DNA of 35,958 bases from Eubacteriales bacterium. Lineage in GTDB: Bacteria > Bacillota > Clostridia > Oscillospirales > CAG-272. How positions within the stretch are numbered: the stretch's first letter is position 1; each line of letters begins with the position of its first letter. A model generated the notes under the pieces. The model was not told the origin of the DNA. It did no database searches and saw only the letters and a list, made by a program, of their open reading frames with translations. The stretch spans positions 1 through 35,958 of the forward strand of contig JAZSIJ010000010.1 of the NCBI GenBank assembly GCA_045533755.1. The letters run 5' to 3'. This document shows, in pieces, positions 9 through 23,614 of this stretch. The position numbers and the translations under genes were made by a program.

Positions 9-97
9 GACATTTTGTCTGTTGAAAAGAGACATTTTGTCTGTTGAAACACGACATTTTGTCTGTTGAGAGATGTTAAGAGCTGTTGAGAGATGTT
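9..97. repeat. Tandem direct repeats, 22-bp period (GACATTTTGTCTGTTGA x3) followed by CTGTTGAGAGATGTT x2
   Basis: Copies start at 9, 31 and 53; the second motif is at 63-77 and 83-97. Confidence 0.85.
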
Positions 98-1127: not shown

Positions 1128-1445
1128 ATGAAGTATTCGAAGGATTTGCCGAGAAAAATGTACCTTTACTTTACAGGGTACTCTGAATCGGTGGGAGCTC
1201 CGAGCTTTCAAAAATTTGCGAGAAGTGTTGGCGCGACGGTAGCCGAGCTTGAGTCTTTCAGAAAAAGGCGCAGGTTTGAGCTCGCGTGGCGCGAATGTCT
1301 TGAGATCAGAAGAGATTATCTTATTGACTCGGCGCTCTCACGGCGATTTGACCCATCGTTTACGAAGTTCCTTCTCTCCGATGAGGCGGCAGAGGGCGGT
1401 GCGGAGGACGGCAGTCTCTCGGTATTACTGGAGGTGATAGAGTGA
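1128..1445 (+). CDS. Terminase small subunit (P22 gp3-like DNA packaging protein)
   Basis: Directly upstream of and overlapping terL; PSFQKFARSVG...F..A...LIDSAL...F.KFLL pattern; AGGAGG RBS before ATG 1128. Confidence 0.65.
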   Translation: MKYSKDLPRKMYLYFTGYSESVGAPSFQKFARSVGATVAELESFRKRRRFELAWRECLEIRRDYLIDSALSRRFDPSFTKFLLSDEAAEGGAEDGSLSVLLEVIE

Positions 1446-2803
1446 GGTTAAATTTGGCTGTGACTAAAAAGCAAAAGGCGTTTATCGACGCTGTGGAGTC
1501 GGAGGTTCTCTTCGGCGGGGCAGCCGGCGGCGGTAAATCCTACGGTCAGGTTGTTGACGCTCTGCTTTTTGCCCTCAAATACCCGGGCTCAAAGCAGCTT
1601 ATACTCCGCCGCACCTACGCCGAGCTTGACAAGTCGCTGATAAGACTTGCCCTCGCGCTGTATCCGCGTGAAATTTTCACGCTCAACTCCTCCTCACACA
1701 CGGGAAGGTTCAAGAACGGCTCGCTTCTCGACTTCGGCTACTGCGCGGCTGAAAACGATGTCTATCAGTATCAGTCGGCAGAGTACGATGCCGTAAGATT
1801 CGACGAGCTGACGCACTTCACCGAGTCGCAGTATCTATACCTTATCTCGCGTGTCCGAGGCGCAAACTCCTTTCCGAAGCAGATAAAGTCCTCGACCAAC
1901 CCCGGCGGTGTCGGACACGCGTAGGTGAAATCGCGGTTCGTTGACCCTGCGCCGAAAAATTCCTCCTTTGTTGGCAGGGACGGTATGCGGCGGATATTCA
2001 TTCCCTCTCTGCTTTCGGACAACCGCTTTCTCCTGGAACGAGACCCCTCCTACCGTGAGAGGCTCACGGCGCTTCCCGAGCGTGAAAAGCGCGCTCTCCT
2101 TTACGGCGACTGGGACATCTTCGAGGGGCAATACTTCACCGAGTTCGACAGGGCGCGTCATCTGACAGAGGCCTTCGAGATACCGCGCGAGTGGCGAAAA
2201 TACAGAACTATCGACTACGGTCTTGACCGCCTGGCGTGTCTGTGGATAGCCATAAGCCCCGACGGGTGTGCCTACGTCTACCGAGAATACTGCGAGTCAA
2301 ATCTGCCGATAAGCGAGGCGGCACGAGCAATAACCGAGAGAACTCCGCCCGCAGAGAACATATACGCGACGCTCGCTCCCCCTGACCTTTGGTCGAGAAG
2401 TCAGGAGACGGGAAAGAGCAAGGCGGGAATTTTCGCAGAATACGGCGTCAGCCTAACCAAGACCTCAAACGACAGGGAGTGCGGCTGGCTTGCCGTAAAG
2501 GAGCTGCTCTGCGGAAGCGGAAAAATGCGCCTATCCTTCTTTGACAACTGCTGTGAGATTATACGCTGTCTGCCCGCGCTGGTGGTGGATAAGCTCCGTC
2601 CCACCGACTGCTCGACCGAGCCTCACGCGATAACCCATGCGCCCGACGCTCTGCGCGGCTTTGCAATCTATCACGCAAGACCCGAGAGAAGCATTCGGGT
2701 AGAGCCCCGCGTTGCTTGGTCGCGCGATATGTGGGAGGACTATCACAGAGCAAGCGAGGAGGAGAAAATTTATTTAAGACGAAGATACGGAGAACCAAAT
2801 TGA
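1442..2803 (+). pseudogene. terL: Terminase large subunit interrupted by one in-frame TAG (1922-1924)
   Basis: Walker A GGAAGGGKS, Walker B RFDELTHF, coupling motif STNPGGVGHA*VKSRF, nuclease motifs IDYG and HAPDALR; both ORF-track halves are in the same frame. Confidence 0.85.
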
Positions 2804-4548
2804 AAACCGAAACAACATCTAAAGAAGCGCGCCTTGAGTTCTTCAGGGAGCTTTACGAGCGCGCAAGGTCGGCGTCCCTCGAGCTGTACGGGGAGCTTGA
2901 CCGCCATTTTGCACAATACAAGGGCTCGCGCGAGATAGACGGCTCCGAGGAGCAGGCGCTGACGGTAAGGAACATCACCTACGAGGTGGTAGAGAGCCAG
3001 ATTTCCTCCGAAATCCCGATGCCCAAGGTCGACGCAGACCTATACAGCAAGAGCCGTGACAAAAACGCTCACTCAATAGAGCTTCTCTGCGCCTCGCAAA
3101 GAGACAGGCTTCCATTCGAGCGAATGAACGACATCGACGAGCGCTACACCTATATATACGGCGGAAGCGTTTGGCTCGTGGAATGGGACAGCTCGCTCGC
3201 GGTTGGAGGTGAGAGGGGCGGTGTAAGAGTGCGCGCCATCTCACCGCTTGACTTCATACCCGAGCCCTGCGTCTATTCGGTAGAGGATATGGAATACTGC
3301 TTCGTACGCAGAGCTACGACTAGAGGAGAGATAGCACGCCGCTACTCTGTCGGCGAGGACGAGCTCTCGCGCCTTGAGTGCGAATACTCGGCTGATTCAG
3401 CCGAGAGCGAGGGCGATGCTATAACGCTCGTCACCTGCTTCTATCGCTCGGAGGACGGTGAGGTCGGCAGGTTCGTGTTCTCGGGAGAGGTTACTCTCTC
3501 CGACCTTCCGCGGTACTACGCGAGAAAGCTTATGACCTGCTCTGTCTGCGGCGGCAGCTTTGGAAATTGCTCCTGCGAGGACTCCGAGCCCGTGGTGTCG
3601 GAGGTAGAGTACGAGAGCGTAAGCCTTACCGCCGAGGAGGCGACGGGAATATTCGGTCAGGCTATATCGCGCCCCCTCGAGCTCTCGCTGCCCTACTACC
3701 TGCCGAAGCGCTTCCCTATTATCGTAAGGAAGAACACCTCGGTCGACGGTATGCTTCTCGGTCAGTCCGACTGCGAGTACATCCGCCCTCTTCAGCAGGC
3801 GATAAACAAGGTTGAGTCGAGGATACTTCAAAAGCTGCTTCGTGCCGGCATAACACCGATAATCCCCGAGGACGCGAGCATATCGCTGAACAACGCCGTC
3901 TTCGGTCAGGTGATAAGAATGAAGCCGGGCGAGAGCGCCGATATGTACGGAAAGGTGGACACCACCCCCGATATATCGCAGGATATTCTTGAGGCCGACA
4001 GACTCTACGAGCAGGCAAAGAGGGTTATAGGTATTTCCGACGCCTTCCAGGGCAACGATACTCTGAAAAGCGAGTCAGGCTATGCAAAGCAGCTTAGAAT
4101 CTCGCAGGCAAGCGGCCGTCTTGAATCCAAAAGACGAATGAAGAAGGCGGCTTATGCCGACATATACAGAGCTATATTCGAGCATTATCTCGCCTTTGCC
4201 GACGAGCCTCGAGAGCTATCCTATGCTGATTCGCTCGGAAACATACACGTAGAGTCCTTCAACCGACGCGACTTTATAGAGCTTGACACCCGTACGGGCA
4301 GGCTTCACTATTCCGACGCCTATCTCTTCTCCTCCGACTCGTCGGGCGAGGAATACAATCGCGATGCGCTATGGGAGAGAAATCTCGAAAATCTGAGGTC
4401 AGGAACGCTTGGCGACCCCGCCTCACCGAAAACGCTGCTCCGCTATTGGCAGAGCCAGGAGCGCGCCCACTACCCTTACGCACGTGAGAACGTAGAGTAT
4501 TTTACAGCACAACTCGAAGAAAGGAATAATTATGAAGAAAACCAATAA
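2800..4548 (+). CDS. Phage portal protein (P22-like) with a Cys-rich insert
   Basis: Follows terL with TTG start overlapping its TGA; size about 580 aa; motifs ISPLDFIPEP, FPII...LGQSDCEYIRPLQQAIN and GISDAFQG..SG.A. Confidence 0.8.
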   Translation: MKTETTSKEARLEFFRELYERARSASLELYGELDRHFAQYKGSREIDGSEEQALTVRNITYEVVESQISSEIPMPKVDADLYSKSRDKNAHSIELLCASQRDRLPFERMNDIDERYTYIYGGSVWLVEWDSSLAVGGERGGVRVRAISPLDFIPEPCVYSVEDMEYCFVRRATTRGEIARRYSVGEDELSRLECEYSADSAESEGDAITLVTCFYRSEDGEVGRFVFSGEVTLSDLPRYYARKLMTCSVCGGSFGNCSCEDSEPVVSEVEYESVSLTAEEATGIFGQAISRPLELSLPYYLPKRFPIIVRKNTSVDGMLLGQSDCEYIRPLQQAINKVESRILQKLLRAGITPIIPEDASISLNNAVFGQVIRMKPGESADMYGKVDTTPDISQDILEADRLYEQAKRVIGISDAFQGNDTLKSESGYAKQLRISQASGRLESKRRMKKAAYADIYRAIFEHYLAFADEPRELSYADSLGNIHVESFNRRDFIELDTRTGRLHYSDAYLFSSDSSGEEYNRDALWERNLENLRSGTLGDPASPKTLLRYWQSQERAHYPYARENVEYFTAQLEERNNYEENQ

Positions 4549-4663
4549 TCCCGGATACCGCCACAGCGGTGTCGAGAAAATTACCGCCAAAAATCCGCCG
4601 AAGGACGAGCCGCGCGCCGAGAGAAAAACGGCGAAAACCGACCTTCGCGTGAAGGGAGGCTGA
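4532..4663 (+). CDS. Small basic protein (43 aa, not in ORF track)
   Basis: AAAGGA RBS; MKKTNNPGYRHSGVEKITAKNPPKDEPRAERKTAKTDLRVKGG fills the portal-scaffold gap. Confidence 0.6.
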   Translation: MKKTNNPGYRHSGVEKITAKNPPKDEPRAERKTAKTDLRVKGG

Positions 4664-4667
4664 TCAA

Positions 4668-5093
4668 ATGGAGGAAATCAGAATGGAGGAGAGCGAGCTC
4701 GCCCCCGACACCGTTACCGAAGACACCGCAGGCGAGGGTGCGCCTTCGCCCGTCGGCGAAGAGTCTGTGCCTCCCCGCGAGGAGCTTATCCGACTTGCAG
4801 AGAGCTTCCCCGAAATTCTTGCCTCTGAAAATGCGGCGGACGTTATGAATCTCGACAGGTACGCCGAGCTTCGACGTCTTGGTCTCTCCGAGCGTGAGGC
4901 ATACCTCGCTACGAGAAGCGTCACGGTGCGCGAGGACAACCGCGCGCATCTCTCTCCAACCGTAACGCGAGAGGCCAAGGGTCCCGGGTCGGCTATGCCG
5001 GAGGGCGAGCTTCGCGCTTGCCGAGAGCTCTTCTTCGGAATGAGCGACGCCGAAATAAGGCGCTTGTATAAAAAGGTATGCGCGCAGCCGTAA
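4668..5093 (+). CDS. Putative capsid scaffolding protein
   Basis: Acidic low-complexity N-terminus, helical C-terminus, position between portal and capsid genes, GGGAGG RBS. Confidence 0.55.
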   Translation: MEEIRMEESELAPDTVTEDTAGEGAPSPVGEESVPPREELIRLAESFPEILASENAADVMNLDRYAELRRLGLSEREAYLATRSVTVREDNRAHLSPTVTREAKGPGSAMPEGELRACRELFFGMSDAEIRRLYKKVCAQP

Positions 5094-5136
5094 ATTTGTC
5101 ATACGGCAACACAACAGACAGAAAGGATAATTTAAA

Positions 5137-5547
5137 ATGTTCAAATTGAAAAAGATACTCAATTCGGGCGTAAACGTACCCGAGCCCGAAATAGTTCATG
5201 CACAGCCGTCCATCGACTTGGCTGCCGGCTCAACAGCCTACTCCAATGCAGGCACCCTCACCAGAGGAGGTGCTACGACAAAGCCCACTCACGTACTTAT
5301 TCGCACTAAGGAAAAGGGCACGGAGCAGGCACTCTGCTACAGAATAACCCCCGAAATGATATTCGAGGTCGAGGTCGTTGGCGATAACATCGGAGAGATT
5401 TACGCAGGCGACAGCATCTGTCTCTATCAAGAGGGCGCCGAAGGCTACTCGAAGTGCTGTGACACCTTCGAGGGTGGCGTTGCCCTCATCAAGGATAAAA
5501 ACGGTGCGACCAAAAGCGGCGACACCATATACGTATCCTTCGAATAA
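5137..5547 (+). CDS. Putative head decoration/cement protein
   Basis: 136-aa beta-rich protein just upstream of the major capsid gene; AAAGGA RBS. Confidence 0.45.
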   Translation: MFKLKKILNSGVNVPEPEIVHAQPSIDLAAGSTAYSNAGTLTRGGATTKPTHVLIRTKEKGTEQALCYRITPEMIFEVEVVGDNIGEIYAGDSICLYQEGAEGYSKCCDTFEGGVALIKDKNGATKSGDTIYVSFE

Positions 5548-5571
5548 GTGAAATAAGAAAGGAAGAAATAA

Positions 5572-6630
5572 ATGATAATATATTCCAAGTCATCCGGACT
5601 TAATCCCGGAGCATACGGCAGACTCGAAACTCCCATTAAGATGGTTATCGAGCACGAGAGCGATATTCAGACCAAAAAGGGAGGCATTTGCTCCTGGCTC
5701 TTCAACGTAGAGCGCAGCAACAAGTTCGGCGAGACCATTATCGGTCAAAACGAGTTCGACGTGTTCGCTGCGGCGCTTGAGGGCGCGGGAGCAGAGAATG
5801 ACACCATCGTTGAGACCTACCGCAAGTTCATTGAGCACATTCAGTTTATGAAGGAGTTCACCGTCACCGCGGAGATGATGGAGGACGCCGGCTACGGCGT
5901 TGCTCAGGATACCAAGCGCCGTGCAGAAAACTTCACGAGAGCCTACTACAAGACCATAAACAAAATCTGCGAGTTCGCCCTCGCTAACGGTACCTCTGAG
6001 GCGGGCAGCTTCGCAAGAGCAAAGCTCGACCTCACCGCACCCGACGGTCTTCCTCTCTTTAACTCCGAGCACGTTTGGGGCACTAACGGAAATAGCGGCA
6101 AGCAGTCGAACTTCTTCTGGGGCGATATTTTCAAGAGCGGTGCAGGAGACTCAAGAGCGGCAAGAGCCGAGGTATTTGAGGAGGCACTCGCCGCCCTCTC
6201 GACCAAAATCAGAAATATGAAGGACGAAAACGGCGATATTCTCGGATACACCGCCGACACCATAATCCTCCCCGGCAACCGCCTCGTGTCCGAGTCCATT
6301 GCAAAGAAGGTGTGCGGCACCGAGTTCACCCTCGGGACAGCCAACAACGACATCAACCTTCAGTACGGCAACTGGAACATCGTCATTATGCCTAACTGGC
6401 AGACCGAGGACGACAGAGTTATGATAATGTCGAGCGAGGCCAACAAGCACCTTGCCGGCAATATGTTCTTCAACCGCGTTCCCCTCACCGTAACGAATTG
6501 GGTTGACCATCACACCGGCAACTACATCTGGAACGGCAGGTGCCGCTTCGGCGTGGGCTTCGGCAGCTACAAGCACATTCTTCTTGCTGTTGATTCGGCG
6601 TCTGCCGTAGAGGGCGCAAGCGCGCTTTGA
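5572..6630 (+). CDS. Major capsid protein (HK97 fold, Mu gpT-like family)
   Basis: 352 aa; EGA....D, FTVTAEMMED, DGLPLFNSEH and terminal RFGVGF motifs; strongly biased codons suggest high expression. Confidence 0.8.
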   Translation: MIIYSKSSGLNPGAYGRLETPIKMVIEHESDIQTKKGGICSWLFNVERSNKFGETIIGQNEFDVFAAALEGAGAENDTIVETYRKFIEHIQFMKEFTVTAEMMEDAGYGVAQDTKRRAENFTRAYYKTINKICEFALANGTSEAGSFARAKLDLTAPDGLPLFNSEHVWGTNGNSGKQSNFFWGDIFKSGAGDSRAARAEVFEEALAALSTKIRNMKDENGDILGYTADTIILPGNRLVSESIAKKVCGTEFTLGTANNDINLQYGNWNIVIMPNWQTEDDRVMIMSSEANKHLAGNMFFNRVPLTVTNWVDHHTGNYIWNGRCRFGVGFGSYKHILLAVDSASAVEGASAL

Positions 6631-6729
6631 TAAAGAGCCTCGGCTAATCAATGCCCGAGACCTTTAATCAAAGAGCCGAGGCCACAGGGATTTTCCTCGG
6701 TGGCTTCGGCAAAAGAAAGGAGCAAAAAT

Positions 6730-7563
6730 ATGACTTTAAACCAACTTAAATCGGCAGTTTCGGCTCTTCTGTCCGAGGCTGTGACCGAGCGAGACCCAAT
6801 ATTTCTCGGCGCGGCAAACCGCTCTCTCGAAATGCTCTTTCGCGAGCTTCCCTCTCTGAAGCTATTGACGCTTCCCGTAACCAAGACGGGCTCGACGCTT
6901 CTTGCAGAAAAGGTCGAGCACTCGGCAGGAGAGAAAATTTCCTTCAAGCTTTCGGCAGACGCTTATTCCTTTAAGGTCGCAGGCAGAGGAAGATACACCG
7001 TCCGTGACTCCTCGGGCGAGGTGGAAAGAGACTTTGACACTCCCCTCTCTACCCTTCGCGGCTTTATTTCGGGGTGCTCGGGCGAGATAGTCTTTGAGGG
7101 CGATTATCGCTACACGGTATTTGCTCTTACGGTCTTTAACGGCATTGTCGGGCAAAGCCTCGAGGATATTCCCGACGGCTCGGGGGAGAGGGTAGTCGCT
7201 GCCGACGATTATGCCGACGACATTCTCTCGCTTTGCACAGAGGCAAAAGACGCTTCGGGAAGAATAGTTTCGGGGGCAAAGGTCGTGGGTAGGAGCGTTG
7301 TATTCCCGAAGGATTATTCGGGGCTTGTTACGCTCTCTTACGAAAGGCGTCCCGCACCGATTACCGAAAGCTCGGTATTCATTGACGCCGAGCCCGACGC
7401 AGCCTCCGTCCTTCCACTTCTCACAGCATATTTTCTCACGCTTGAGGAGGACTGTGACAGAGCCGGAGAATACCTCTCTCTTGCGCGCGACGGGATAAAG
7501 AGCCTTCTCGCGCGCAGAGCGCGCACCGACCTTGAATATACCGACGTTACGGGGTGGGCGTGA
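6730..7563 (+). CDS. Putative head-tail adaptor (tail tubular A / P22 gp4-like)
   Basis: MTLNQLK...LL N-terminus and Y.RRP..IT...D.....LPLL.AY C-terminal pattern; follows capsid gene; AAGGAG RBS before ATG 6730. Confidence 0.55.
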   Translation: MTLNQLKSAVSALLSEAVTERDPIFLGAANRSLEMLFRELPSLKLLTLPVTKTGSTLLAEKVEHSAGEKISFKLSADAYSFKVAGRGRYTVRDSSGEVERDFDTPLSTLRGFISGCSGEIVFEGDYRYTVFALTVFNGIVGQSLEDIPDGSGERVVAADDYADDILSLCTEAKDASGRIVSGAKVVGRSVVFPKDYSGLVTLSYERRPAPITESSVFIDAEPDAASVLPLLTAYFLTLEEDCDRAGEYLSLARDGIKSLLARRARTDLEYTDVTGWA

Positions 7564-10238
7564 TGGGAATAAACAGAAGAGCTCCGACGAGCAAAAAAAG
7601 CGTATATACGCGCTCCTATCCGGGTTTTCTCGGAGTTGACCTCTCGGGGTCAAGCGCCTCGGCGGGAAAACGCTGTGCCTACGCCGAAAATATGTATCGC
7701 GACTACGAGGCAGGAGATACGGGAGCGCTTGAGAGCATTCCCGGCTTCAGAAAAATATTTTCGACAAGCAACAAAATAAACGGTCTCTTTCTTCAGAGAA
7801 CAGCCGACGGCGAGACCTACGTCATTTTGCAGGACGGAGTGGAGGTAAAGCGCTTCAATCCCACAGCGCCCGAGGAGATGACCCCTCTCACGATAACTCC
7901 CAGCATCAACGACAAAGAAAGCTTTTGCTTTAGCTACGGAGACTATCTCTTTCTCTCCAACGTCCCAAGCCTATACAGAATAAGCGATAGCGGCGAGATG
8001 CGCTTGGTGCAGGACACCTTAGCTAGCGCCCCCTACGTTCCGACCGTATATAAAAACGGCAGGGCATTTGAGCAAAGGAATCTTCTGACCTCGCGCTTTA
8101 TCGAGAGCGCAGAGCTTCTGCCCACCTCCGACTACGCCTACGGAACTCCGGGTCTGTTCTACAAGGTTACGAGCGTCGAGCGCCGCGAGTGCGCCGTCAC
8201 CGGCATATCCGACACGACCGCCGACGTATTCATTCCCGGACGCGCCCTGCTCGGAGAGGAATACTACACCGTTACCGAGATAGACAACTCCGCCTTTTCG
8301 GGCAACACGTCGGTAGCCTCCGTAACGATAGCCGATACCGTAAAAAGAATAGGAAACGGCGCATTCTACGCCTGCTCGGCGCTGCGGCGCGTCGCCTCGG
8401 GTGACGGTCTTCTCGAAATCGGCGACCTCGCATTTGCCGAATCGGGTCTTGGCGAAATCTATATCCCCGCAGGCTTCCTCCGCTTCGGAGATTCGGCTCT
8501 TCCCACAAACTGCAGAATTCTTTACGAGCTCGGACAGGCAGGCTTCGAGAGCATCGAGAACGCCCCCGCCCTTTCGGTTTCCTACGGAAGCCAAAACAAA
8601 TCTATAACCCTCGGCTTTAAGCTTAAAACGCCCTCACATACTATTCATTCGGTGAAAATTAACGGCTTGACGCAAAAATACACCACTCTGAGCGACGCTG
8701 ACGGTTGCGTAAGCGAAATAATAATCTCGGTAGCCGACAAGAGCAATCTGACGGGCAGCGTATTGAAGGTGCTGGCAAGCATGCGGGATTACAGCGCAGC
8801 TCCAAGCGACGAGGGCGTTGACTTTACGCTTTTTACAAAAAACAAGCTGATACAATTCCCCTCGGTGATAAGAAACTGCACCGCGGCAAAAACGATAGAC
8901 GGCAGAGTATTCGCCTGGGGACACCCACAGTTTCCCTCGGTGCTCTTCTACTCTAAGCGGGGAGCAGATTATAACTCGGCGCTCTATTTCGGCACGCTTG
9001 ACTATATTAACGAGGGCGACGGAGACAAAAGAATCGTTTCGGTGCTCGGGCTTCCCGACGGAATAGCGGTATTTACCTCTGCCAAGGACAACGCCGAATC
9101 CATCTACTTCCACACTCCCGAGGACTCGGGGGGACTGCGCGACAGGCTCTATCCCGTCTCCGAAATACATATCGGCGACGGAGCGGTGGGAGAATCGCTG
9201 AATTTTGGCGATGACCCCGTGTTCGTATCCGAAAAGGGTCTTCTCGGTATCGGTGAAAATCCGCTCTATCTTTCCAGAAGCGTCACCCAGCGCTCCTCCT
9301 CGGTGTCTCCCGCTCTCCTAGGTGAGAAGCTTTCGGCATCAAGGCTTGCGCTGTGGCGAGGATACCTCGTGCTCTCGGTCGGCGGAAAAATGTATCTTGC
9401 CGATTCGCGAAAGACCTACGAGAGTGTATTCGGAAAGGAGTACGAATGGTTTATCCTTAACGGAATAGGGACTTACAAAAACGACGAGCGCGTATACCGC
9501 TATGCGACGAGGGCTGACGACGGCTACGAGCTATCCGATACGCCCGACGCGGCTGCGGAGGGGACGGTTTACAGCGAGGACAGGGGAAGCGGGCTCGTCT
9601 ACTTCGTCTACGACGGAGATAAAAAAATTCAGGTTTATCCTACCGAGGAAATGACGGGCGGAGACTTCTATCCCGCCGAGAGACTTCTCTCCTTTGACGG
9701 ACTTCTTATGTTCTCGACGGGGTGCGGAGACCTTTGCGTATTCAATAGCGATATGCGCGGCGTACCGCCTCTGCGGATTGCATCGGCTCCGGACTTTGAC
9801 GCCGAGGAATATTCCCGGCTTTTCGGCAACCGAATACACTCGGATTTCTACGACTTTGCAGGTCACGCGGCAAGATACGCCTTGGAAACGATACCCGACG
9901 ACTGCGGGCTTCCGCATATGGCGAAGAGGACTCTCTCCGGCTCTCTGGTTATCAAGCTCAAGTGCTTTATCGGCTCAAGGGTTACCCTGAGGGCATCATA
10001 CGGAGGCGACGGCTATTTCCTTCTCGGAGAGTACGACGCGGGTGTTACCGACCTGTCCTCGCTATCATTTGACACGCTCTCCTTCACCGCCTCGGAGGAC
10101 ACCGTAATAATGCCCGACGAGAGACGCGAGAGCTGGAACGAGAAGAGCATTTCTCTCTTGTCGGAGGACTTCCGCTCACCTGTTGGTGTCTACTCTGTAA
10201 GCTATCTCTACCGAGTGACCGACAGACCTAAATCATAA
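7563..10238 (+). CDS. Tail nozzle/head stabilisation protein (P22 gp10 / T7 gp12-like) with internal BspA-type LRR module
   Basis: N-terminal GFLGVDLS...ENM...G.L...PG motif, propeller-like segments (DGRVFAWG, PVFVSEKGL), and IGNGAFYAC..L / IGDLAFAES.L repeats. Confidence 0.65.
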   Translation: MGINRRAPTSKKSVYTRSYPGFLGVDLSGSSASAGKRCAYAENMYRDYEAGDTGALESIPGFRKIFSTSNKINGLFLQRTADGETYVILQDGVEVKRFNPTAPEEMTPLTITPSINDKESFCFSYGDYLFLSNVPSLYRISDSGEMRLVQDTLASAPYVPTVYKNGRAFEQRNLLTSRFIESAELLPTSDYAYGTPGLFYKVTSVERRECAVTGISDTTADVFIPGRALLGEEYYTVTEIDNSAFSGNTSVASVTIADTVKRIGNGAFYACSALRRVASGDGLLEIGDLAFAESGLGEIYIPAGFLRFGDSALPTNCRILYELGQAGFESIENAPALSVSYGSQNKSITLGFKLKTPSHTIHSVKINGLTQKYTTLSDADGCVSEIIISVADKSNLTGSVLKVLASMRDYSAAPSDEGVDFTLFTKNKLIQFPSVIRNCTAAKTIDGRVFAWGHPQFPSVLFYSKRGADYNSALYFGTLDYINEGDGDKRIVSVLGLPDGIAVFTSAKDNAESIYFHTPEDSGGLRDRLYPVSEIHIGDGAVGESLNFGDDPVFVSEKGLLGIGENPLYLSRSVTQRSSSVSPALLGEKLSASRLALWRGYLVLSVGGKMYLADSRKTYESVFGKEYEWFILNGIGTYKNDERVYRYATRADDGYELSDTPDAAAEGTVYSEDRGSGLVYFVYDGDKKIQVYPTEEMTGGDFYPAERLLSFDGLLMFSTGCGDLCVFNSDMRGVPPLRIASAPDFDAEEYSRLFGNRIHSDFYDFAGHAARYALETIPDDCGLPHMAKRTLSGSLVIKLKCFIGSRVTLRASYGGDGYFLLGEYDAGVTDLSSLSFDTLSFTASEDTVIMPDERRESWNEKSISLLSEDFRSPVGVYSVSYLYRVTDRPKS

Positions 10239-10254
10239 TCAGAAAGGAAACGCT

Positions 10255-10623
10255 ATGAATGCAACTAAAATAACCGACGGAGAGCTTGAGGCGGCAAGGG
10301 TCGCCTCGCTCCCGACAAGGCCGACCGCCCCCACAGCCTTCGGGGGACGCGGCTACACAGCCACCGAAATGAAGGAGGCGTTTGACAAGCTCCCTTTGCT
10401 TCTCACCGAGAGATATAATCTCCTTATCGACGACGCTTTGGCGCTCGGTGAGGGCTCGCTTGCCGACTCTATGCCGACAGGACTTTCCGAGGAACACACT
10501 CTTGCCGACCTGTTCAGTGATATAGGCAACGGAAATCTCGCCTCCTACCTTAAGGTAGGCGACGCAACGCTTTATTCTATTCTTAACCGTCTTATGACGG
10601 CTGTCTTTGGGGAGGGTATATGA
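10255..10623 (+). CDS. Phage structural protein resembling a tail-fibre N-terminal attachment region
   Basis: VASLPTRP...TATEMKEAFDKL...YN.LID pattern; position after nozzle gene. Confidence 0.45.
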   Translation: MNATKITDGELEAARVASLPTRPTAPTAFGGRGYTATEMKEAFDKLPLLLTERYNLLIDDALALGEGSLADSMPTGLSEEHTLADLFSDIGNGNLASYLKVGDATLYSILNRLMTAVFGEGI

Positions 10624-11012
10624 GCAGCTTCAGATATGCACTGGCAGGCGGCTCGTACGAGCTTATCTCCTACTCCGAGGAGGGTGCGGGTGCCTCCTTC
10701 GCCTTCCCGAAGGAGACCTCGGGTGAGATTTCCATCGGCCTTCACAGCTATCCCCTCTCGCAAGGCAGGGCAAGCGTCGGAATGAAGAGCCTTGCCGACG
10801 GAGTATACACGCCCTATCTCATATCAAGAGATAAAAAGGCGGCTCTTCCCGCAATAAGAAAAAGCGGAAACAAAATTACCTTTATCGGCTACACGACCCC
10901 CGAGCTTTGCGCGAAATTCGACGAGCTGCGCAGATTGAAAAGAACCTGCCGCGAGCTTGGCGAAAAATACCGTGCACTCGAGGAATACGTATTCGGCAAG
11001 GGACTCTTTTAG
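10620..11012 (+). CDS. Hypothetical protein with C-terminal coiled coil
   Basis: ATGA overlap with upstream gene; GGAGG RBS. Confidence 0.6.
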   Translation: MSSFRYALAGGSYELISYSEEGAGASFAFPKETSGEISIGLHSYPLSQGRASVGMKSLADGVYTPYLISRDKKAALPAIRKSGNKITFIGYTTPELCAKFDELRRLKRTCRELGEKYRALEEYVFGKGLF

Positions 11013-11024
11013 AAAGGAAGAACT

Positions 11025-11633
11025 ATGAAAAGAAAATTTATCAAAAGACTTACGGCGGCATTCGCCTGCATTATTCTCGTCCTCTCGCTCTCCTGCCTCG
11101 CGGCTTCTGCCGAGGAGGTATACGATGAGCCGTACGGGGAGGATTCTGTTACAGCAGAGACCGACACCCGAGCAAACGTCTTCGAGGACGTCTTCACGGC
11201 GCTTGAGGGCGTCTCCTCCGAAATACTCTGCGCCCTTTCCTTCGCAGGCTCTCTCATCATCGCCTTCGCTTACAGGAAGGGACTTCTTCCCGCCGTCAAA
11301 AGCGGTATCAGCGCAATAGGAAGCGCTGTCGGCTCAATGAAGGAGAGCTCCGAAAGCTACACCAAGCAGGGTGAGGAGCTTCTTTCGCTGATGTCAAAGA
11401 GGCTTGAAGAGGTTGAAGCGACACTCGCCTCCTTTGAGAAGGCGGTCTCAGATATAGCCGAAAGGAGTGAGGACGGCGCCCTTGCCGCCCGCGACAGAGC
11501 CGAAATGAAGGCTCTTATGTCGGCGCAGATTGATATGCTCTACGACATCTTTATGACCTCCTCGCTTCCGCAGTATCAGAAGGATGCCGTCAGCGACAGA
11601 GTGCGCGAGATGAAAGAGGTGATGGCGGAGTGA
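11025..11633 (+). CDS. Membrane protein (signal peptide, one TM helix, coiled coil)
   Basis: Basic N-terminus plus hydrophobic signal ending AASA; TM ILCALSFAGSLIIAFAY; heptad-rich C-terminus. Confidence 0.7.
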   Translation: MKRKFIKRLTAAFACIILVLSLSCLAASAEEVYDEPYGEDSVTAETDTRANVFEDVFTALEGVSSEILCALSFAGSLIIAFAYRKGLLPAVKSGISAIGSAVGSMKESSESYTKQGEELLSLMSKRLEEVEATLASFEKAVSDIAERSEDGALAARDRAEMKALMSAQIDMLYDIFMTSSLPQYQKDAVSDRVREMKEVMAE

Positions 11634-12007
11634 CGGGTCAAGAGAAGAAAAAAGCGGTGCGGAGGATTATCCTGAGGGCTATCGGCTTTACGCTCTGCGT
11701 TTTGCCGGTTACAGCTTGTATTTTTCTCTACTTTCCAATATGGCAGGCAAGGGGCGGCGAGGTTTTGCTCTCGGGCATAGCTCTTATTCTCCTGATGCTT
11801 GCCCTTATCCCGCTTTACAAGGCTGTTAAGGAGGCACTCCGCTCGCCTGCGGCTTACACGGTATGGCTCATCACCTTTATTCTCTTCCTTCTTCTTTCGA
11901 GAATTGCCGACGAAATGGTGGTAATATCCTTCACCGGCTTCGTTGGAAACGCCCTCGGCGCTGTATGCTTTAAGCTGGCGGAGGACAAAAAGAATGAACG
12001 AGTTTGA
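11630..12007 (+). CDS. Small four-TM membrane protein (holin-like size and charge)
   Basis: Four hydrophobic stretches with basic termini; GTGA overlap with upstream gene. Confidence 0.65.
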   Translation: MTGQEKKKAVRRIILRAIGFTLCVLPVTACIFLYFPIWQARGGEVLLSGIALILLMLALIPLYKAVKEALRSPAAYTVWLITFILFLLLSRIADEMVVISFTGFVGNALGAVCFKLAEDKKNERV

Positions 12008-12836
12008 CAGCCGTCTTCTCGAACAGGGGAGCCTGTTCAAGCAGGGCTACGCCGCGCTTGCCGCCAATTTGAGCAAGGTAATAGCCGTGATAACCGCCGC
12101 CGTCGCGGTGCTGGTGACCTTCACCGAGGTCAGCTTCGCATCCTTCGGGGCGTACGACGTCACAACCACCCTCGTCGTTCTTCTCATCGCGGCATACGTA
12201 ATCTACTTCTCGCTTGAGGACGCGGGAGAAAGACAGGCTGAGGAATCGGCAGAATACTACGATGCTCTCGCCCGCCATTCAGCCCTCGCCGAGAGAATAA
12301 CGCCCGAGCTCATTCCCGCCCTGCGCGATTTCGCCCAAAAATACGCTCTCGCCGAGGCTGAATACAGACGGCGCTGTGAGCTTATGCGTCTCGGCTACGG
12401 AAGCGATGACCTTGCGGCTTACGAGCGCGGCGAGAGGTTAGGGCGCAAGGCAAGGCGCGCCCTTCTGCGCGTGGAGAGGATAAAGCCTATGCCTATCTCA
12501 GCGGGGGTGCTTCTCTCAAAGGAGCGAAGGGCGAAAAGGAGCGAGCTTTGCGACCCCGCGAGAGAAAAGCATCTGAAAATGCTGCTTCAGCTAATCCCGA
12601 CGACACTGTGTATGCTGGTCACGGTATCTATCGTGCTCAGCACAAAGGACGGTCTCGGCACGGCAGAGATATGCGAGGGCATAATGAAGCTCTCCACCCT
12701 GCCCGCCGTCGGAATACGCGGATACCTCGCCGGGCTCTCCTACACGAAGGAGACCCGCGTCGGCTGGCTTCGGGTGCGCTCAAGGCTTCTCGAGGCGTTT
12801 CTCTCGGAGATGGGCGTGCCCGCGTGTGAGCATTGA
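11994..12836 (+). CDS. Membrane protein (two TM, soluble helical domain, one or two TM)
   Basis: GGAGG RBS before ATG 11994; hydrophobic segments at both ends. Confidence 0.65.
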   Translation: MNEFDSRLLEQGSLFKQGYAALAANLSKVIAVITAAVAVLVTFTEVSFASFGAYDVTTTLVVLLIAAYVIYFSLEDAGERQAEESAEYYDALARHSALAERITPELIPALRDFAQKYALAEAEYRRRCELMRLGYGSDDLAAYERGERLGRKARRALLRVERIKPMPISAGVLLSKERRAKRSELCDPAREKHLKMLLQLIPTTLCMLVTVSIVLSTKDGLGTAEICEGIMKLSTLPAVGIRGYLAGLSYTKETRVGWLRVRSRLLEAFLSEMGVPACEH

Positions 12837-12861
12837 CATTTATCCTAAAATATGCTACAAT
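12833..12861 (+). promoter_or_regulatory. Sigma-A promoter for the helicase gene
   Basis: TTGACA (12833-12838), 17 bp, TGcTACAAT extended -10; the -35 contains the upstream TGA stop. Confidence 0.8.
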
Positions 12862-15683: not shown

Positions 15684-16006
15684 GACGCAGGATACCGCCG
15701 AAGGCGGTTACGCATACCGCGTAAGCGGTATCTTGCCCGGCGAGGAGATGAAAGCCTCAAGAAAAACAAAGCGGAACAATCACCAAAAACTACACCCCGA
15801 GCGGCAATACCCCTGCGACATTCGTCGCCGGGTAGATTCCTCGTACGGGAATTTGCTCCGCCCTGCAAGGCTTCCGACACGGAAGCGGCGGAGCAATGTT
15901 TCGAACCCAATTCGCGCGTTTTATTTCAATTCTTGCCTTTGATAGACAAAGCTAAAACACTAGCTTTCCGTTCGCGCGAGTGGGTTCGAAAGCGTACGGG
16001 CCACCA
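15684..16006. repeat. Multi-hairpin cluster ending in an inverted partial copy of the tRNA-Glu 3' end
   Basis: CCGCC-GAA-GGCGG, TTGCTCCGCC...GGCGGAGCAA, TTTCGAACCCA (15899) / TGGGTTCGAAA (15981); 15981-16006 resembles the tRNA-Glu T-arm and acceptor. Confidence 0.65.
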
Positions 16007-16010
16007 TAGA

Positions 16011-16049
16011 ATAGAAAAATGGACACCGTGATTGGTGTCCATTTTCTAT
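16011..16049. terminator. Bidirectional terminator hairpin (original tRNA-Glu downstream terminator)
   Basis: AAAATGGACACC-GTGATT-GGTGTCCATTTT. Confidence 0.75.
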
Positions 16050-17518
16050 GGTGAAGCAAACGCTTCAATATCCGAACTGCCTTCTATTGCCTCAAGCTCG
16101 TCGCTTGTGGGAACTGTTACAGGCTCATTTTTGAAATTAAAGGTTATTACGAGCTTGTCGTCGTAAAGTAACACACATTTCACAAGACTGTCAATCAAAC
16201 GCTCCTTATTTGTCTCAATTGTTAAGTCAAGTTTACGGAATTTGTCCAAAGCAAATAAAATTTGTTCTTTTGTTAGCTTGGGAGTGCTTGTCTGCTCTTT
16301 CAAAATATTGAGCTGAATTTGCTCTTCCTCGGCTTCAAGCTCCTCGAGCTTTGCCTTGGTTGAACGAGTGATAATTCCTGCCGCAATAGCCTTCATTACG
16401 TTGTCAATGGATTTACGGACTTCCTTAAGCTGAGCCTCAAGAAGCGGTATAACCTTGTTGTCTTCGTCAAGCAATGCCACTATCTCATCGGCAATCTTAT
16501 CAAGAGCTTCGTCATCAAAAAGAACCTTGATAACCTTATTCAGCACAAGCTCCTCAATCCATTCCTTACGAACGGCTTTTTTATCGCACTCGTGCCTCTT
16601 TGCGCTAGCACATTTGTAGTAGCGGTAGATATTGCCGTTTTTCTTTTGTGCGGAATCTCCGACCATCATACTGTGGCACTTTCCGCAGAACAGCTTGGTA
16701 GTAAGCACGTACTTTTCTTCTGCCTTGTTCTTGGCTGATGCATGCTTGTTCTGTGCCATTCGCCTTTCGACTACCTTGAATGTGTCTTCTGACACTATAG
16801 CGGGTACACCGCCCGGAATTTCAATACCGTTATAGTGATACACACCCATATAAGATTTGTTACCAAGCATTCGGTTGAGCGTGCCATGATTAAAGGCTTT
16901 GCCCTTCTGCGTTTTAAGTCCTCTTGCATTTAGACTGTGCACTATTTCCGCAATAGACTCTCCGTGAGCATAACGCTCAAAGATTTCAGCCACTATGGGA
17001 GCTTTTAAAGGGTCAATTTGGAAGTGCTTCTCCTCGTCAACGGTGTAACCGTATGGAAGACCATTTCCACCGTTAAAACGACATTTTAAGGCATTCTCGG
17101 TGAGACCCCGTGTTACCTTTTCTGCAAGATCAGCGGAATAGTATTCCGCCATACCCTCAAGCACGGATTCAAGAATTATGCCCTCAGCACCTTCAGAGAT
17201 TGCTTCGGTTGCGGAAATGACACGAACGTCGTTCTTCTTCAAAGCAGCCTTATATTTTGCACTGTCGTAGCGGTTACGAGAAAATCGGTCGAGCTTCCAA
17301 ACTATGACTACGTCAAAGGTTTTCTTCGCACTGTCGCGAATCATTCGCTGAAATTCAGGACGGTTATCGGTCTTGGCAGAATATGCCCTGTCAATGTAAT
17401 GCCCGACTATCGTAATGCCATTCTTCTCGGCAAAAGCAGTGTTCTCACGAATCTGCCCCTCAATCGACTCCTCGCGCTGATTGTCCGAGGAATATCTCGC
17501 ATAAATTACACCCGTCAT
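16046..17518 (-). CDS. Large serine recombinase (resolvase, recombinase and zinc-ribbon domains)
   Basis: YARYSS catalytic motif, DRFSRN, PYGY, CGKC...YYKC...C zinc ribbon, coiled coil. Confidence 0.95.
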   Translation of the reverse strand: MTGVIYARYSSDNQREESIEGQIRENTAFAEKNGITIVGHYIDRAYSAKTDNRPEFQRMIRDSAKKTFDVVIVWKLDRFSRNRYDSAKYKAALKKNDVRVISATEAISEGAEGIILESVLEGMAEYYSADLAEKVTRGLTENALKCRFNGGNGLPYGYTVDEEKHFQIDPLKAPIVAEIFERYAHGESIAEIVHSLNARGLKTQKGKAFNHGTLNRMLGNKSYMGVYHYNGIEIPGGVPAIVSEDTFKVVERRMAQNKHASAKNKAEEKYVLTTKLFCGKCHSMMVGDSAQKKNGNIYRYYKCASAKRHECDKKAVRKEWIEELVLNKVIKVLFDDEALDKIADEIVALLDEDNKVIPLLEAQLKEVRKSIDNVMKAIAAGIITRSTKAKLEELEAEEEQIQLNILKEQTSTPKLTKEQILFALDKFRKLDLTIETNKERLIDSLVKCVLLYDDKLVITFNFKNEPVTVPTSDELEAIEGSSDIEAFASP

Positions 17519-17552
17519 TTACTCTTACCCCTTCCCTAAAATTTGTGCTTTG

Positions 17553-17581
17553 ATTGTAGCATAAACTTCTCTGATATTCAA
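17553..17581 (-). promoter_or_regulatory. Sigma-A promoter for the recombinase
   Basis: Minus strand TTGAAT, 17 bp, TGcTACAAT. Confidence 0.6.
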
Positions 17582-17746
17582 GTCTTTTTAACTACTTATT
17601 TTGCCAAAACACCTCGATTTTAGCAAGGTGTGCACGTCCAGGTACATCTCATTACGATATTGCCACTAAAACTTGAAAAATCACTATGCCTAAATCAATG
17701 AAAAAGCGCTTGAGAGTTGCAAAAAAATTACAGCACTAAACAAAGA

Positions 17747-17769
17747 AAAGCCTCGAGATCCGAGGCTTT
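17747..17769. terminator. Terminator hairpin
   Basis: AAAGCCTCG-AGATC-CGAGGCTTT with T/A tracts on both sides. Confidence 0.65.
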
Positions 17770-17773
17770 GTTT

Positions 17774-18190
17774 TTAGCTAAATATGGGTCGCAAAAAATC
17801 CACAGCATTACGCTCAACCATCAGAAATATCTTATTTGGTTTCGGTACGTTGTTGTGGGATTTTATTAAACCATCCAAACCAACGATAACGCCTGGATTG
17901 CCACGTATAACAACCACAGTTATACAATCTTTGTCACAAATCGGTTTTAACACATATTTCTTTTCTCGTGCTGGTCTCGACATGCCTCCAAAGAGGTAAA
18001 ATTGCTCCCAGATTATATCACCGCTTTCTGTGCAGTGAATATGAGTGGCTTTTGTAGCTCTTTTTCTGCTAACGTAGAGATTCGCAGCAATATCATTGAA
18101 CTTTAAATTGTACAAATCAAAATAATCCAACCTCTGTTTAGGAGCTTTTCCTATAAACTTAGATAGCTTTCTCGAATTAACAAAGCACAT
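17774..18190 (-). CDS. Hypothetical protein
   Basis: TAATG-coupled to the upstream XRE gene; ends at a terminator. Confidence 0.55.
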   Translation of the reverse strand: MCFVNSRKLSKFIGKAPKQRLDYFDLYNLKFNDIAANLYVSRKRATKATHIHCTESGDIIWEQFYLFGGMSRPAREKKYVLKPICDKDCITVVVIRGNPGVIVGLDGLIKSHNNVPKPNKIFLMVERNAVDFLRPIFS

Positions 18191-19317
18191 TATTTTACCC
18201 TCTTGTTAAAGTCGTCAATATCGCGGAGCAGCTTTTTGTAACGTTCGTCATCACGTAACGATGCAAAACATTCCATTGACATTATTTCTTCGAGATTTTG
18301 GAATCGATCGCCCAAGCGATTGCTAACGTTAGAAAGAAACGGAGAGTCTATTTTGAAGCCGGAAGCTATAAGCTCCTCTTTATCCTTGATGTCATAGTTG
18401 ATTGCTTTCTCAAGAGAGTCAAGCGCAAGCTCTGAGTTGCCAAACTCCATCGCTTTTTCCGCAAGCAGAACGTAGATATCACCGCCTTCAACGTGGTGGA
18501 AGGGCATCTTCGTCTCGCCTTCAAATATAACGTCGAGCATTCTTATCAGACGTTGATATATATCCATCGCCTTCTCAGGCTCTTCTGTCAGATCATAAGC
18601 CTTGCCGAGACTGACCGCACCGTATAGAAGGGCGTGGATCAAATTCATTATATAAAACTGCCAGCTTGTGATCTCGGTTTTGTAATCCTTCTGCCAATGT
18701 GCGTGAATGGAGTACATTTTATGGATATTGAAATCTGCCCTTGACGGAAATTTTTCAGCTTGCCTTCTTGCTTCTTCAAATTTGCCGTTAGCACAGTGGA
18801 GCATAAGCATTATCATTCTGGCGCGGAGTATGCGGTTTACATTATCATCATAGGAGAATATAGTATTTGCATGCTTTTCGCAAGACTCGTAAAGAGCCTT
18901 TGCATTCTTCTCGTCATAAATGGAATTTTGCGGATATGCGAGCGAAATTTCAAGCTCCATACAGTTTATAAGGAGTGTAAAGTTGTTGGGGTAGATCTCT
19001 AATCCCTCAAGCAGCACATTGTACTTGTCGGTCAAGCACTCGATGGTCAAAGGAAATGTGAGTTTGCTTTGCGCTCTCCTCATTATTTCCGAAATATCCT
19101 CGTTTTTCTTTATATCTCCGGTTCCGAGAATTGTGTCCGTACTAACACCAAATACATGCGCCAATGGAACGATTTGCGAAAGGTCAGGCATTCCGCTTTC
19201 GTTCTCCCATTTAGAAATAGCTTGTGCGGTAACACCAATTTTCTCTGCAAGCTCTTCTTGAGTAAGACCTCGGCTTTTACGAAGTTCTTTTATCGTTTTT
19301 CCAATTGAATGTTGCAT
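18190..19317 (-). CDS. XRE-family HTH regulator with TPR-like C-terminal domain
   Basis: IKELRKSRGLTQEELAEKIGVTAQAISKWE HTH; helical repeats; GAGGAG RBS before ATG 19317. Confidence 0.88.
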   Translation of the reverse strand: MQHSIGKTIKELRKSRGLTQEELAEKIGVTAQAISKWENESGMPDLSQIVPLAHVFGVSTDTILGTGDIKKNEDISEIMRRAQSKLTFPLTIECLTDKYNVLLEGLEIYPNNFTLLINCMELEISLAYPQNSIYDEKNAKALYESCEKHANTIFSYDDNVNRILRARMIMLMLHCANGKFEEARRQAEKFPSRADFNIHKMYSIHAHWQKDYKTEITSWQFYIMNLIHALLYGAVSLGKAYDLTEEPEKAMDIYQRLIRMLDVIFEGETKMPFHHVEGGDIYVLLAEKAMEFGNSELALDSLEKAINYDIKDKEELIASGFKIDSPFLSNVSNRLGDRFQNLEEIMSMECFASLRDDERYKKLLRDIDDFNKRVK

Positions 19318-19459
19318 ACAGCTCCTCCTCTGTTTCGTTGCAATAAGTATATCAAAAAACGGTGTGTTTTTGAAGATACTAATTCGCAACACAAACTCAA
19401 CGTTCCGTTGTATTAATTATAGCATCAATTCTTCAAAACTTCAAGAGGCTGGCTTAATA

Positions 19460-19488
19460 TTGACTATTTTTCAAGTTTGTGCTATAAT
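19460..19488 (+). promoter_or_regulatory. Sigma-A promoter
   Basis: TTGACT, 17 bp, TGcTATAAT. Confidence 0.7.
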
Positions 19489-19532
19489 TATTGTGACAAT
19501 AAGATAAGAAGTAGGGGGCGTGAGTAAGAAAG

Positions 19533-20696: not shown

Positions 20697-20740
20697 CTTT
20701 TTTCACCAAAAAACGCACATACGGACGAAAAGGAGAAGTT

Positions 20741-23607: not shown

Positions 23608-23614
23608 TTAATAA

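Follow-up and report, generated by a model that had tools for sequence, protein, structure and literature searches.

The DNA examined here (contig JAZSIJ010000010.1 of an Eubacteriales bacterium) begins with a compact block of phage-type genes, which raises the question whether they belong to a prophage, to what is left of one, or to a particle system owned by the host. The stretch, hereafter the window, is the entire 35,958-bp contig C63 of a metagenome-assembled genome (MAG) designated G000 (162 contigs, 1.40 Mb, 81% complete). The block in question (positions 1128–12836) is probably a vertically inherited operon that goes back to a temperate phage of the short-tailed (P22/T7-like) type; it would be similar to a gene transfer agent (GTA), stripped of the genes for integration, recombination, replication and lysogeny. 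As the window comprises the whole contig, only 1.1 kb of sequence is available to the left of the cluster. A first-pass annotation of this DNA had raised the caveat that missing modules could lie further to the left, a point that the contig end in G000 leaves to be judged in relatives.

Gene content of the cluster

The cluster is a co-directional block in which every gene lies on the + strand. Its length is 11.7 kb in G000 and reaches 18.6 kb in a related genome, G004. The genes are given below; here and throughout the text, frequencies of gene families refer to the 80 related loci that carry relatives of the cluster.

1128–1445, + strand: TerS-like (small terminase) protein, 105 aa, all-helical (phrog_3064 "terminase", E 2.3e-4)
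1442–2803, + strand: large terminase TerL (ATPase and nuclease), interrupted by a TAG codon (phrog_979, Terminase_3)
2800–4548, + strand: portal protein (phrog_156, E 2.6e-29; weak P22_portal and SU10_portal matches)
4668–5093, + strand: scaffold candidate, 141 aa, labelled from its position alone
5137–5547, + strand: conserved head-module protein, 136 aa
5572–6630, + strand: major capsid protein (phrog_371, E 3e-6; weak Mu-like_gpT match)
6700–7563, + strand: head-to-tail adaptor candidate, 287 aa (g287), labelled from its position alone
7554–10238, + strand: predicted tail nozzle/hub protein (T7 gp12 / P22 gp10 type), 894 aa, assigned from its AlphaFold2 (AF2) fold
10255–10623, + strand: 122-aa protein, fibre or spike anchor candidate
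10620–11012, + strand: 130-aa protein (family in 26 loci)
11025–11633, + strand: membrane protein 1, 202 aa, with an N-terminal signal/anchor and one further hydrophobic segment
11630–12007, + strand: membrane protein 2, 125 aa, with four hydrophobic segments (family in 40 loci)
11943–12836, + strand: membrane protein 3, 297 aa, with three hydrophobic segments; last gene of the cluster

The first-pass annotation had described the block as packaging, head, adaptor, nozzle and three membrane-protein genes. PHROG, Pfam and fold comparisons bear this description out, except that the adaptor label is positional only.

The TerS-like family precedes TerL in 46 of the loci. When the predicted model of this protein (helical, pLDDT 83.6) was compared with 48,161 representative chains, the top two matches were TerS of P22 (Z 8.1) and of Sf6 (Z 7.8), each aligned over 92–93 residues; a Foldseek search with the same model gave no significant match. 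The comparison is suggestive, not decisive, of a P22/Sf6-type TerS fold.

Both parts of TerL match phrog_979 (N part, E 6e-36; C part, E 1.5e-10) and share one reading frame, which is interrupted by an in-frame TAG at 1922–1924. The first-pass annotation did not notice this stop. In the TerL of 9/9 relatives the position is occupied by an invariant Trp, with no stop, which identifies the stop as a TGG-to-TAG change. Contigs from four public gut metagenome runs were compared with the region, and in those of the three runs that cover base 1923 (three studies, closely related DNA) this base is G, giving TGG. The stop is thus private to the G000 MAG or an assembly error, and the G000 copy of the cluster may be inactive if the former holds. 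Stop-codon recoding was considered as the cause and rejected, given a single in-frame stop, the conserved Trp of the relatives and the TGG of the other strains.

Between the portal and capsid genes, the scaffold-candidate family is found in 60 loci, and the 136-aa family in 44, immediately 5′ of the capsid gene; neither protein matched a Pfam or PHROG family. The capsid protein is 69–77% identical among seven genus relatives, and its nearest atlas clusters are of the Phage_capsid_4 / Mu-like gpT type (score 0.99). Sequence searches against solved structures with TerL, the portal protein and profiles of the capsid protein and adaptor candidate returned no useful match, and the cultured-phage database yielded just two unannotated faecal phage contigs, with a portal identity of 31%.

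The adaptor-candidate family lies between the capsid and nozzle genes in 67 loci and has no Pfam, PHROG or PDB-sequence match. For the 894-aa protein, an AF2 model built on an alignment of 19 relatives (pLDDT 84.3, pTM 0.76) was searched with Foldseek. The top match was the tail of cyanophage A4 (E 1.6e-19), and the matches with E values from 1.6e-19 to ~1e-9 comprised A4, Pa223, Carin-1, SU10, LME-1, T7 gp12, P22 gp10 and Sf6. The best structural matches are thus all nozzle/hub proteins of short-tailed phages, at a sequence identity of 7–11%; on the evidence of this model, a podovirus-type nozzle/hub fold is encoded 3′ of the portal and capsid genes. A BspA-type leucine-rich-repeat (LRR) domain is inserted in the nozzle at residues ~219–340 (LRR_5, E 2.8e-12), and a PDB profile search with the nozzle gave matches confined to this part.

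The family of the 122-aa protein combines a conserved N-terminus with a C-terminal extension that varies among relatives (up to 1122 aa), and the region after this gene is the variable part of the cluster. Membrane proteins 1 and 3 belong to families present in 51 and 50 loci, respectively. Pfam and PHROG searches gave no match for the 122-aa fibre-like protein, the 130-aa protein or the three membrane proteins.

Pfam and PHROG searches of 1128–12836 detected no family of integrase, replication, tape-measure or lysin proteins, and no att-like repeat flanks the cluster, in agreement with the absences recorded at first pass.

Distribution, vertical descent and selection

Of 36 other species representatives in the genus of G000, 34 have the portal gene, and none of the matches contains a stop codon. 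Identity was mostly 52–62%; four genomes match only in two pieces (43–73%). A single match was obtained in 30 of the 34 genomes and a match in two pieces in three, and G004 carries two copies. Among genomes from other families of the order, 1 of 24 has the portal gene.

The capsid protein was traced in a family draw of 401 genomes (G000 included) and in a separate order draw, also of 401 genomes. In the family draw it is present in 7/7 genomes of the window's genus (g1; 74–80% identity), in 7/7 genomes of a second genus, g32 (50–56%), and in 48 of the 401 genomes overall, its occurrence outside g1 and g32 being sporadic. Across the order it was detected in 27 of 401 genomes, and an order-wide search of these with a capsid profile revealed no further large family with general presence. 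On a wider scale, capsid relatives are encoded by 189 of 185,579 species genomes. Of the best 80 among these 189, almost every one is a MAG from gut or rumen that bears the label Eubacteriales, Clostridia, Oscillospiraceae or uncultured Ruminococcus; one is labelled Coriobacteriaceae.

The four g32 loci (L154–L156, L160) have a compact layout from terS to the nozzle gene. Their TerL does not match the N-domain (ATPase) of the G000 protein and is 40–47% identical to its C-terminal part, so that the N part may represent a domain replacement.

RpoB identity to G000 ranges from 69 to 88%, so that the genus is deep (RpoB identity down to ~68%). In each of the 25 genus genomes fetched, TerL (450–477 aa) and the portal gene (560–639 aa) are open. 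Wherever the fetched stretch covers the capsid gene, it has its full length (18/18), and the nozzle has 873–978 aa in 17 of 18 genomes (657 aa in G032).

Maximum likelihood (ML) trees of RpoB and of concatenated TerL and portal sequences from 26 genomes (IQ-TREE, quick mode, LG+G4) share 12 of 23 internal splits, compared with a mean of 0.16 and a maximum of 3 in 2000 label shuffles. The patristic distances are likewise correlated (Mantel r 0.76; permutation maximum 0.31). Both comparisons draw on a single host marker and on ML trees built in quick mode. The ratio of nonsynonymous to synonymous substitution (dN/dS) was calculated by the Nei-Gojobori method (NG86) for the two closest species pairs (dS 0.43–1.5). 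It amounts to 0.07 for TerL, 0.10 for the portal, 0.08 for the capsid and 0.19 for the nozzle gene in the pair G019/G021, and to 0.03, 0.06, 0.04 and 0.13, respectively, in G030/G036; the value for the adaptor candidate is 0.31. The structural and packaging genes are under strong purifying selection.

These results support vertical inheritance of the cluster and its co-divergence with the host genus. The first-pass annotation had proposed a vertically inherited, co-opted capsid system, to be checked by comparing terminase and host trees and by dN/dS analysis. Its proposal is upheld by the presence in 34 of 36 species, the co-divergence with RpoB, the purifying selection and the host genes at the flanks (see below), with no sign of relaxed selection in TerL, portal, capsid or nozzle genes (0.03–0.19).

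Genetic neighborhood of the cluster

To survey the flanks, 40 kb around the cluster was fetched from eight genus genomes. The core gene order is conserved, and the 20-kb flanks are not common to them. The exceptions are a DinG/XPD-type helicase gene on the 3′ side in G000, G010 and G031, and a SLOG/DprA-like gene on the 5′ side in G000 and G010. As the helicase follows the cluster in 17 distinct genomes, the right-hand junction is common to part of the genus. The initial expectation of the same cluster at the same locus in relatives thus holds for the cluster, but the locus differs, the helicase junction being limited to these 17 genomes.

Among 19 cluster-adjacent ORFs from seven genomes, 15 match Pfam and are, with one exception, ordinary cell genes; the other four are unmatched. 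The flank genes comprise carB and genes for dihydroorotase, MnmA, a MiaB-like protein, a CDP-alcohol phosphatidyltransferase (pgsA-type), OGG, MGDG synthase, an ABC-F protein, a type IA topoisomerase, a cysteine-synthase-type PALP protein, an SDR protein and a LexA-like repressor. The exception is a pectate-lyase-like, tailspike-like protein in G014.

No recombinase was found on the contig carrying the cluster (102–232 kb) in five of five genomes (G016, G036, G033, G014 and G010); the 12 PF00589 (tyrosine) and 4 PF00239 (serine) matches obtained from these genomes are all on other contigs. A contiguous integrase, repressor and replication module, by which a functional prophage is recognised, was not detected, the left flank of G000 being the stretch up to the contig end. 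Integrase or replication modules on the left and a patchy distribution, which had been named beforehand as observations that would speak against a host-owned system, were not found in relatives with an assembled left flank.

In G014 (L017/L018, G014:C14) the cluster is permuted: the genes from scaffold to membrane proteins come first and are followed by terS-terL-portal. The pectate-lyase-like protein of this genome (805 aa), encoded after the portal gene, matches tail-spike PHROGs. In G033, a LexA-like repressor (Peptidase_S24 and HTH_3; L028:16320–16991) is encoded 0.8 kb 3′ of the cluster.

Promoter and operator-like sequences

Two predicted regulatory sequences precede terS in the window:

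814–830, no strand assigned: perfect palindrome TTGTGCAAATTGCACAA, operator-like, ~45 nt 5′ of the −35 hexamer
873–901, + strand: sigma-70-type promoter CTTACA-17-TATAAT, 10/12 consensus matches, leader of ~225 nt

Across 15 loci, the palindrome TTGTGCAAATTGCACAA aligns as TTGTG.A...T.CACAA, and the same alignment keeps TTTTGGA, ATACTTACA, a 14-nt spacer and TG.TATAAT. The strict pattern of palindrome plus promoter occurs in 11 of 53 upstream regions, compared with a shuffle mean of 0.01. The palindrome is a candidate operator, and its conservation together with that of the promoter fits host-type regulated transcription. A second promoter-like site (12833–12861) lies ahead of the helicase gene. 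A host-type promoter on the left and a helicase promoter on the right, both anticipated at first pass, can thus be assigned to 873–901 and 12833–12861.

A terminator (770–794) closes the upstream gene, which encodes an Arc-like ribbon-helix-helix protein (569–748, + strand). This gene is found upstream of the cluster in G000 and at three other loci, and in at least two of those three it lies ~0.5 kb 5′ of terS. The start of the contig contains three tandem 22-nt repeats (GACATTTTGTCTGTTGA...; window positions 9–74), and a DprA/SLOG-like gene matching phrog_289 (134–502, − strand) lies 3′ of them. Rfam searches of the leader and of the whole window gave two tRNAs only, plus sub-threshold matches on the terminator.

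Related phages

The second and more distant copy in G004 (G004a) has a portal 43% and a capsid protein 51% identical to those of G000. Directly upstream of its terS, G004a has an integrase gene of the serine type (phrog_95, E 2e-99), together with genes for a repressor, RecE- and RecT-like proteins and a primase-helicase. The N domain of its TerL is 87% identical to that of G000 (L033/L034, G004:C44). A further phage, found in IMG/VR, encodes a capsid protein 55% identical to that of the window, with the same capsid sequence in five metagenomes (contigs up to 41.8 kb), and also shares a G004a-type protein; the TerL of the IMG/VR cluster copies is 63–66% identical to that of G004a. In G136 and G066, a tyrosine integrase is encoded on the same contig as a related element. 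The detection of mobility genes in G004a, G136 and G066 demonstrates that the methods used find such genes where they are present.

Homologous TerS, TerL, portal and capsid proteins (the latter 51–55% identical) are thus common to the cluster and to the related temperate phages (G004a, IMG/VR). What sets the phages apart from the cluster is an integrase (serine or tyrosine), a repressor, RecE/RecT-like genes, a primase-helicase and, between portal and scaffold, additional large genes. A giant open reading frame (ORF; 1871–2066 aa) occupies the latter position in G136, G066 and G297, in which the portal gene is 13–15 kb from the capsid gene, and it likewise lies 5′ of the scaffold gene in G211. 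These loci (L157–L159, L161) represent four other genera of the family (g55, g31, g101 and g100). At 54 of the 80 loci, a gene for a 238-aa protein is found between portal and scaffold; its family gave nothing in a Pfam/PHROG scan. In most copies within the genus this gene is present, and it might be a remnant of the giant protein.

Base composition and the AT-rich island

The GC content of the cluster genes, in total and at third codon positions (GC3), lies at the 86–100th percentile of 776 host ORFs and resembles that of the helicase gene and rnc, the exception being GC3 of g287 (47th percentile). The genes of an AT-rich island to the right of the cluster are at the 1st–4th percentile. The similarity to helicase and rnc and the difference from the 16–23 kb region, both noticed at first pass from codon usage, were thus reproduced.

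The island (15900–23730, GC 0.32–0.43) seems to be a separate integrated element, and relatives do not have it beside the cluster. The features identified in it are:

16046–17518, − strand: large serine recombinase (Resolvase, Recombinase and Zn_ribbon_recom), 3.2 kb to the right of the cluster
18190–19392, − strand: HTH_3 and TPR regulator, 400 aa
21317–22519, − strand: IS110-family transposase
23536–23724, − strand: two tRNA genes, at the end of the island

The statement of the first-pass annotation that there is no integrase is valid within the cluster, but it overlooked this recombinase. The enzyme was considered as a possible integrase of the cluster and rejected: it lies inside the island, together with the IS110 transposase and bounded by the tRNA genes, and has no counterpart beside the cluster in relatives. 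Its sole tblastn match in relatives is the integrase of prophage G004a.

The genome contains two RNase III-like genes, one in the window (29401–30420, 339 aa) and one at G000:C54:6475–7188. Close orthologs of the 339-aa protein occur mainly in the nearer half of the genus (48–62% identity), with five others at 36–46%; the second copy is of the widespread type.

Comparison with known particle systems

In phage P22 the gene order is terS-terL-portal-scaffold-capsid-tail, with ejection proteins encoded after the tail genes. The cluster has this order in common with P22, its three membrane proteins following the tail genes. It further resembles the podoviruses P22, Sf6 and T7 in the nozzle/hub fold, a weak P22-type portal signal and the nearest TerS fold. 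Unlike them, it has no early, lysis or lysogeny genes and carries an LRR domain in the nozzle.

Capsid-forming phage-inducible chromosomal islands (cf-PICI) are satellites with their own terminase, portal and capsid, which keep an integrase and replication genes and borrow the tails of helper phages. The cluster has a similarly small terminase/portal/capsid set, but its nozzle and the absence of an integrase set it apart from this class. PBSX of Bacillus subtilis, a myovirus-like killing particle, packages host DNA and cannot propagate; its locus is fixed, and a repressor and lysis genes form part of the element. Like the cluster, PBSX is an element of a Gram-positive host.

RcGTA is under host control and resembles a siphovirus, having a long tail and a tape measure. 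GTAs of this type in Alphaproteobacteria are, as far as the accessible parts of the reports extend (PMC9662315, PMC6821227), similar to the cluster in consisting of phage-derived head and tail genes without replication or integration functions, in vertical descent and in purifying selection. In contrast to siphovirus-like RcGTA, the cluster is podovirus-like with a nozzle, and Pfam and PHROG searches revealed no sequence relationship between the two.

The closest counterpart in kind is FpGTA of Faecalibacterium prausnitzii (Nat Commun 2026, with an earlier 2024 preprint; PMC12946183). According to the accessible part of this report, its operon I (10.5 kb) encodes a TerS without an obvious DNA-binding domain, TerL, portal (RCH50851.1), scaffold, capsid (RCH50849.1) and short-tail-type proteins, and a second operon, 125 kb from the first, carries fibre, receptor-binding, holin and endolysin genes. 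The particles, 40 nm in size, contain ~9 kb of host DNA, and the system is nearly ubiquitous in the genus. The same source describes GTA-like packaging in other Ruminococcaceae, Oscillospiraceae and Christensenellaceae, for which the gene clusters are not identified there. Further GTA candidates in mouse gut Clostridia have been proposed, as can be gathered from the accessible portion of a 2026 preprint (10.64898/2026.07.08.737213).

Going by these accounts, FpGTA and the cluster share residence in the chromosome of gut Clostridia, a compact operon of TerS-like, TerL, portal, scaffold, capsid and short-tail genes, the absence of integrase and replication genes and a near-ubiquity in the genus. 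FpGTA is split into two operons, whereas the cluster combines tail genes and three membrane proteins in one, with no lysis genes found in it. FpGTA is supported by particle, proteomic and DNA-size evidence, whereas the cluster is known from its genes alone, is likened to FpGTA by gene categories and belongs to a different, uncultured host genus. Protein-database and atlas searches for a link to Faecalibacterium gave only close relatives or virus-labelled clusters among the matches listed. A literature search, which was narrow and cannot exclude such a paper, found none describing the cluster. The first-pass annotation knew of no characterised podovirus-type element in Clostridia; with FpGTA already published (PMC12946183, in its accessible part) this no longer applies. 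The kind of element is in print, and the cluster adds a candidate, well supported by genomic evidence, in another, uncultured lineage.

Proposed function and alternative explanations

From the gene content, and by analogy with FpGTA, for which a system of this kind has been demonstrated by experiment, we infer particle production, packaging of host DNA and its transfer. The conserved sigma-70 promoter and the upstream palindromic operator would drive a single transcript. Scaffold and capsid protein would assemble procapsids on the portal, to be filled by the TerS-like protein and TerL in a headful manner. Since the element is capable of neither replication nor excision, they would take up DNA of the host chromosome. 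Head closure and attachment to target cells would fall to the adaptor candidate, the LRR-bearing nozzle and the variable fibre-like protein, whereas the three membrane proteins may serve either as ejection or channel proteins or in release.

Several observations weigh against a vertically inherited, GTA-like operon. The analysis deals with genes only. The G000 copy carries the TAG in TerL, lacks the 238-aa gene and has the shortest fibre-like gene (122 aa). TerL and the genes for portal and capsid are missing from two genus genomes (72% and 76% complete). A search confined to the proteins of the cluster and those scanned from its variable region detected neither a lysin nor a recognisable holin. 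The TerS-like protein resembles the whole of P22 and Sf6 TerS, so that it gives no evidence of the FpGTA trait of a TerS without a DNA-binding domain. The locus varies within the genus, with unrelated neighbors in G014, G016, G033, G034 and G036. These differing flanks weigh less, since gene order is poorly kept in the genus: in the window 4.8 kb separate rnc from smpB, whereas in 20/20 genus genomes with an rnc ortholog the two genes are on different contigs. Finally, TerL of G004a groups beside TerL of G000 (SH-aLRT 89) and not with the resident cluster of its own host, which points to exchange between live phages and resident clusters and suggests that recombination between phages and domesticated clusters takes place.

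The particles might be made and kept for another purpose, as a PBSX-like killer or decoy or for programmed lysis and DNA release, an explanation to which we assign a small but appreciable probability. The authors of the FpGTA report voice the same doubt about their own system (PMC12946183, accessible part). The hypervariable region from the nozzle to the membrane proteins and the surface-binding LRR in the nozzle would also fit targeting or killing, and no recipient-side genes were identified. However, TerL, the portal gene and the TerS-like gene belong to the part of the cluster in which constraint is strongest (dN/dS 0.03–0.10), which implies that DNA packaging itself is under selection, and the three conserved membrane proteins are placed where P22, in the order quoted above, has its ejection proteins, which suggests delivery.

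It is improbable that the cluster is an ordinary, still mobile prophage or a capsid-forming satellite whose remaining modules lie beyond the left end of the contig, even though this end is only 1.1 kb from terS, the stretch up to it looks phage-like (phrog_289 match of the DprA/SLOG-like gene, Arc-like repressor fold, three tandem repeats) and close true phages exist. In relatives with assembled left flanks, housekeeping genes adjoin terS and contigs of 102–232 kb are free of recombinases; in G010, which shares the SLOG gene, an ABC-F gene lies immediately beyond it. A mobile element is not expected to occur in 34 of 36 species and to diverge in parallel with its host, and a satellite would not bear its own nozzle. 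The nonsense codon in G000 TerL and the absence of the 238-aa gene common in relatives could point to a dead, decaying prophage remnant, but neither TerL nor portal is interrupted in any of the 25 other genus copies examined, despite an RpoB divergence of up to ~30%, dN/dS is 0.03–0.19 and the contigs of 3/3 runs read TGG at the TAG site. A remnant is very improbable for this cluster, and as a reading for the whole genus decay is already contradicted.

Within the preferred reading of a domesticated phage operon, a more specific history can be put forward, tentatively and with less than even confidence in it as a whole. In this scenario a temperate podovirus not homologous to FpGTA would have been domesticated independently, before the radiation of the genus; its ancestor would have had large internal proteins, and the lineage of genus g32 may share the origin. 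The product would be a single-operon GTA that keeps its own ejection proteins, diversifies an LRR-armed tail and is switched through the operator.

To our knowledge, GTAs were long known almost only from Alphaproteobacteria. Particle sequencing published in 2024–2026 has revealed that GTA-like packaging is common in gut Clostridia, with a gene cluster identified, in the accessible part of the report, only in Faecalibacterium (PMC12946183). At least 189 species-level genomes, from the gut of animals and humans, encode relatives of the capsid gene studied here, and within the genus the cluster bears clear signs of host ownership. The cluster provides concrete genes to seek in particle proteomes and transductomics, the conserved promoter and operator are a starting point for finding the regulator, and the domesticated copies together with their live phage relatives form a comparison set for the change from podovirus to host organelle. 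If the more specific history is true, the cluster could underlie some of the GTA-like packaging seen by sequencing of virus-like particles (VLP) in Oscillospiraceae and Ruminococcaceae beyond Faecalibacterium.

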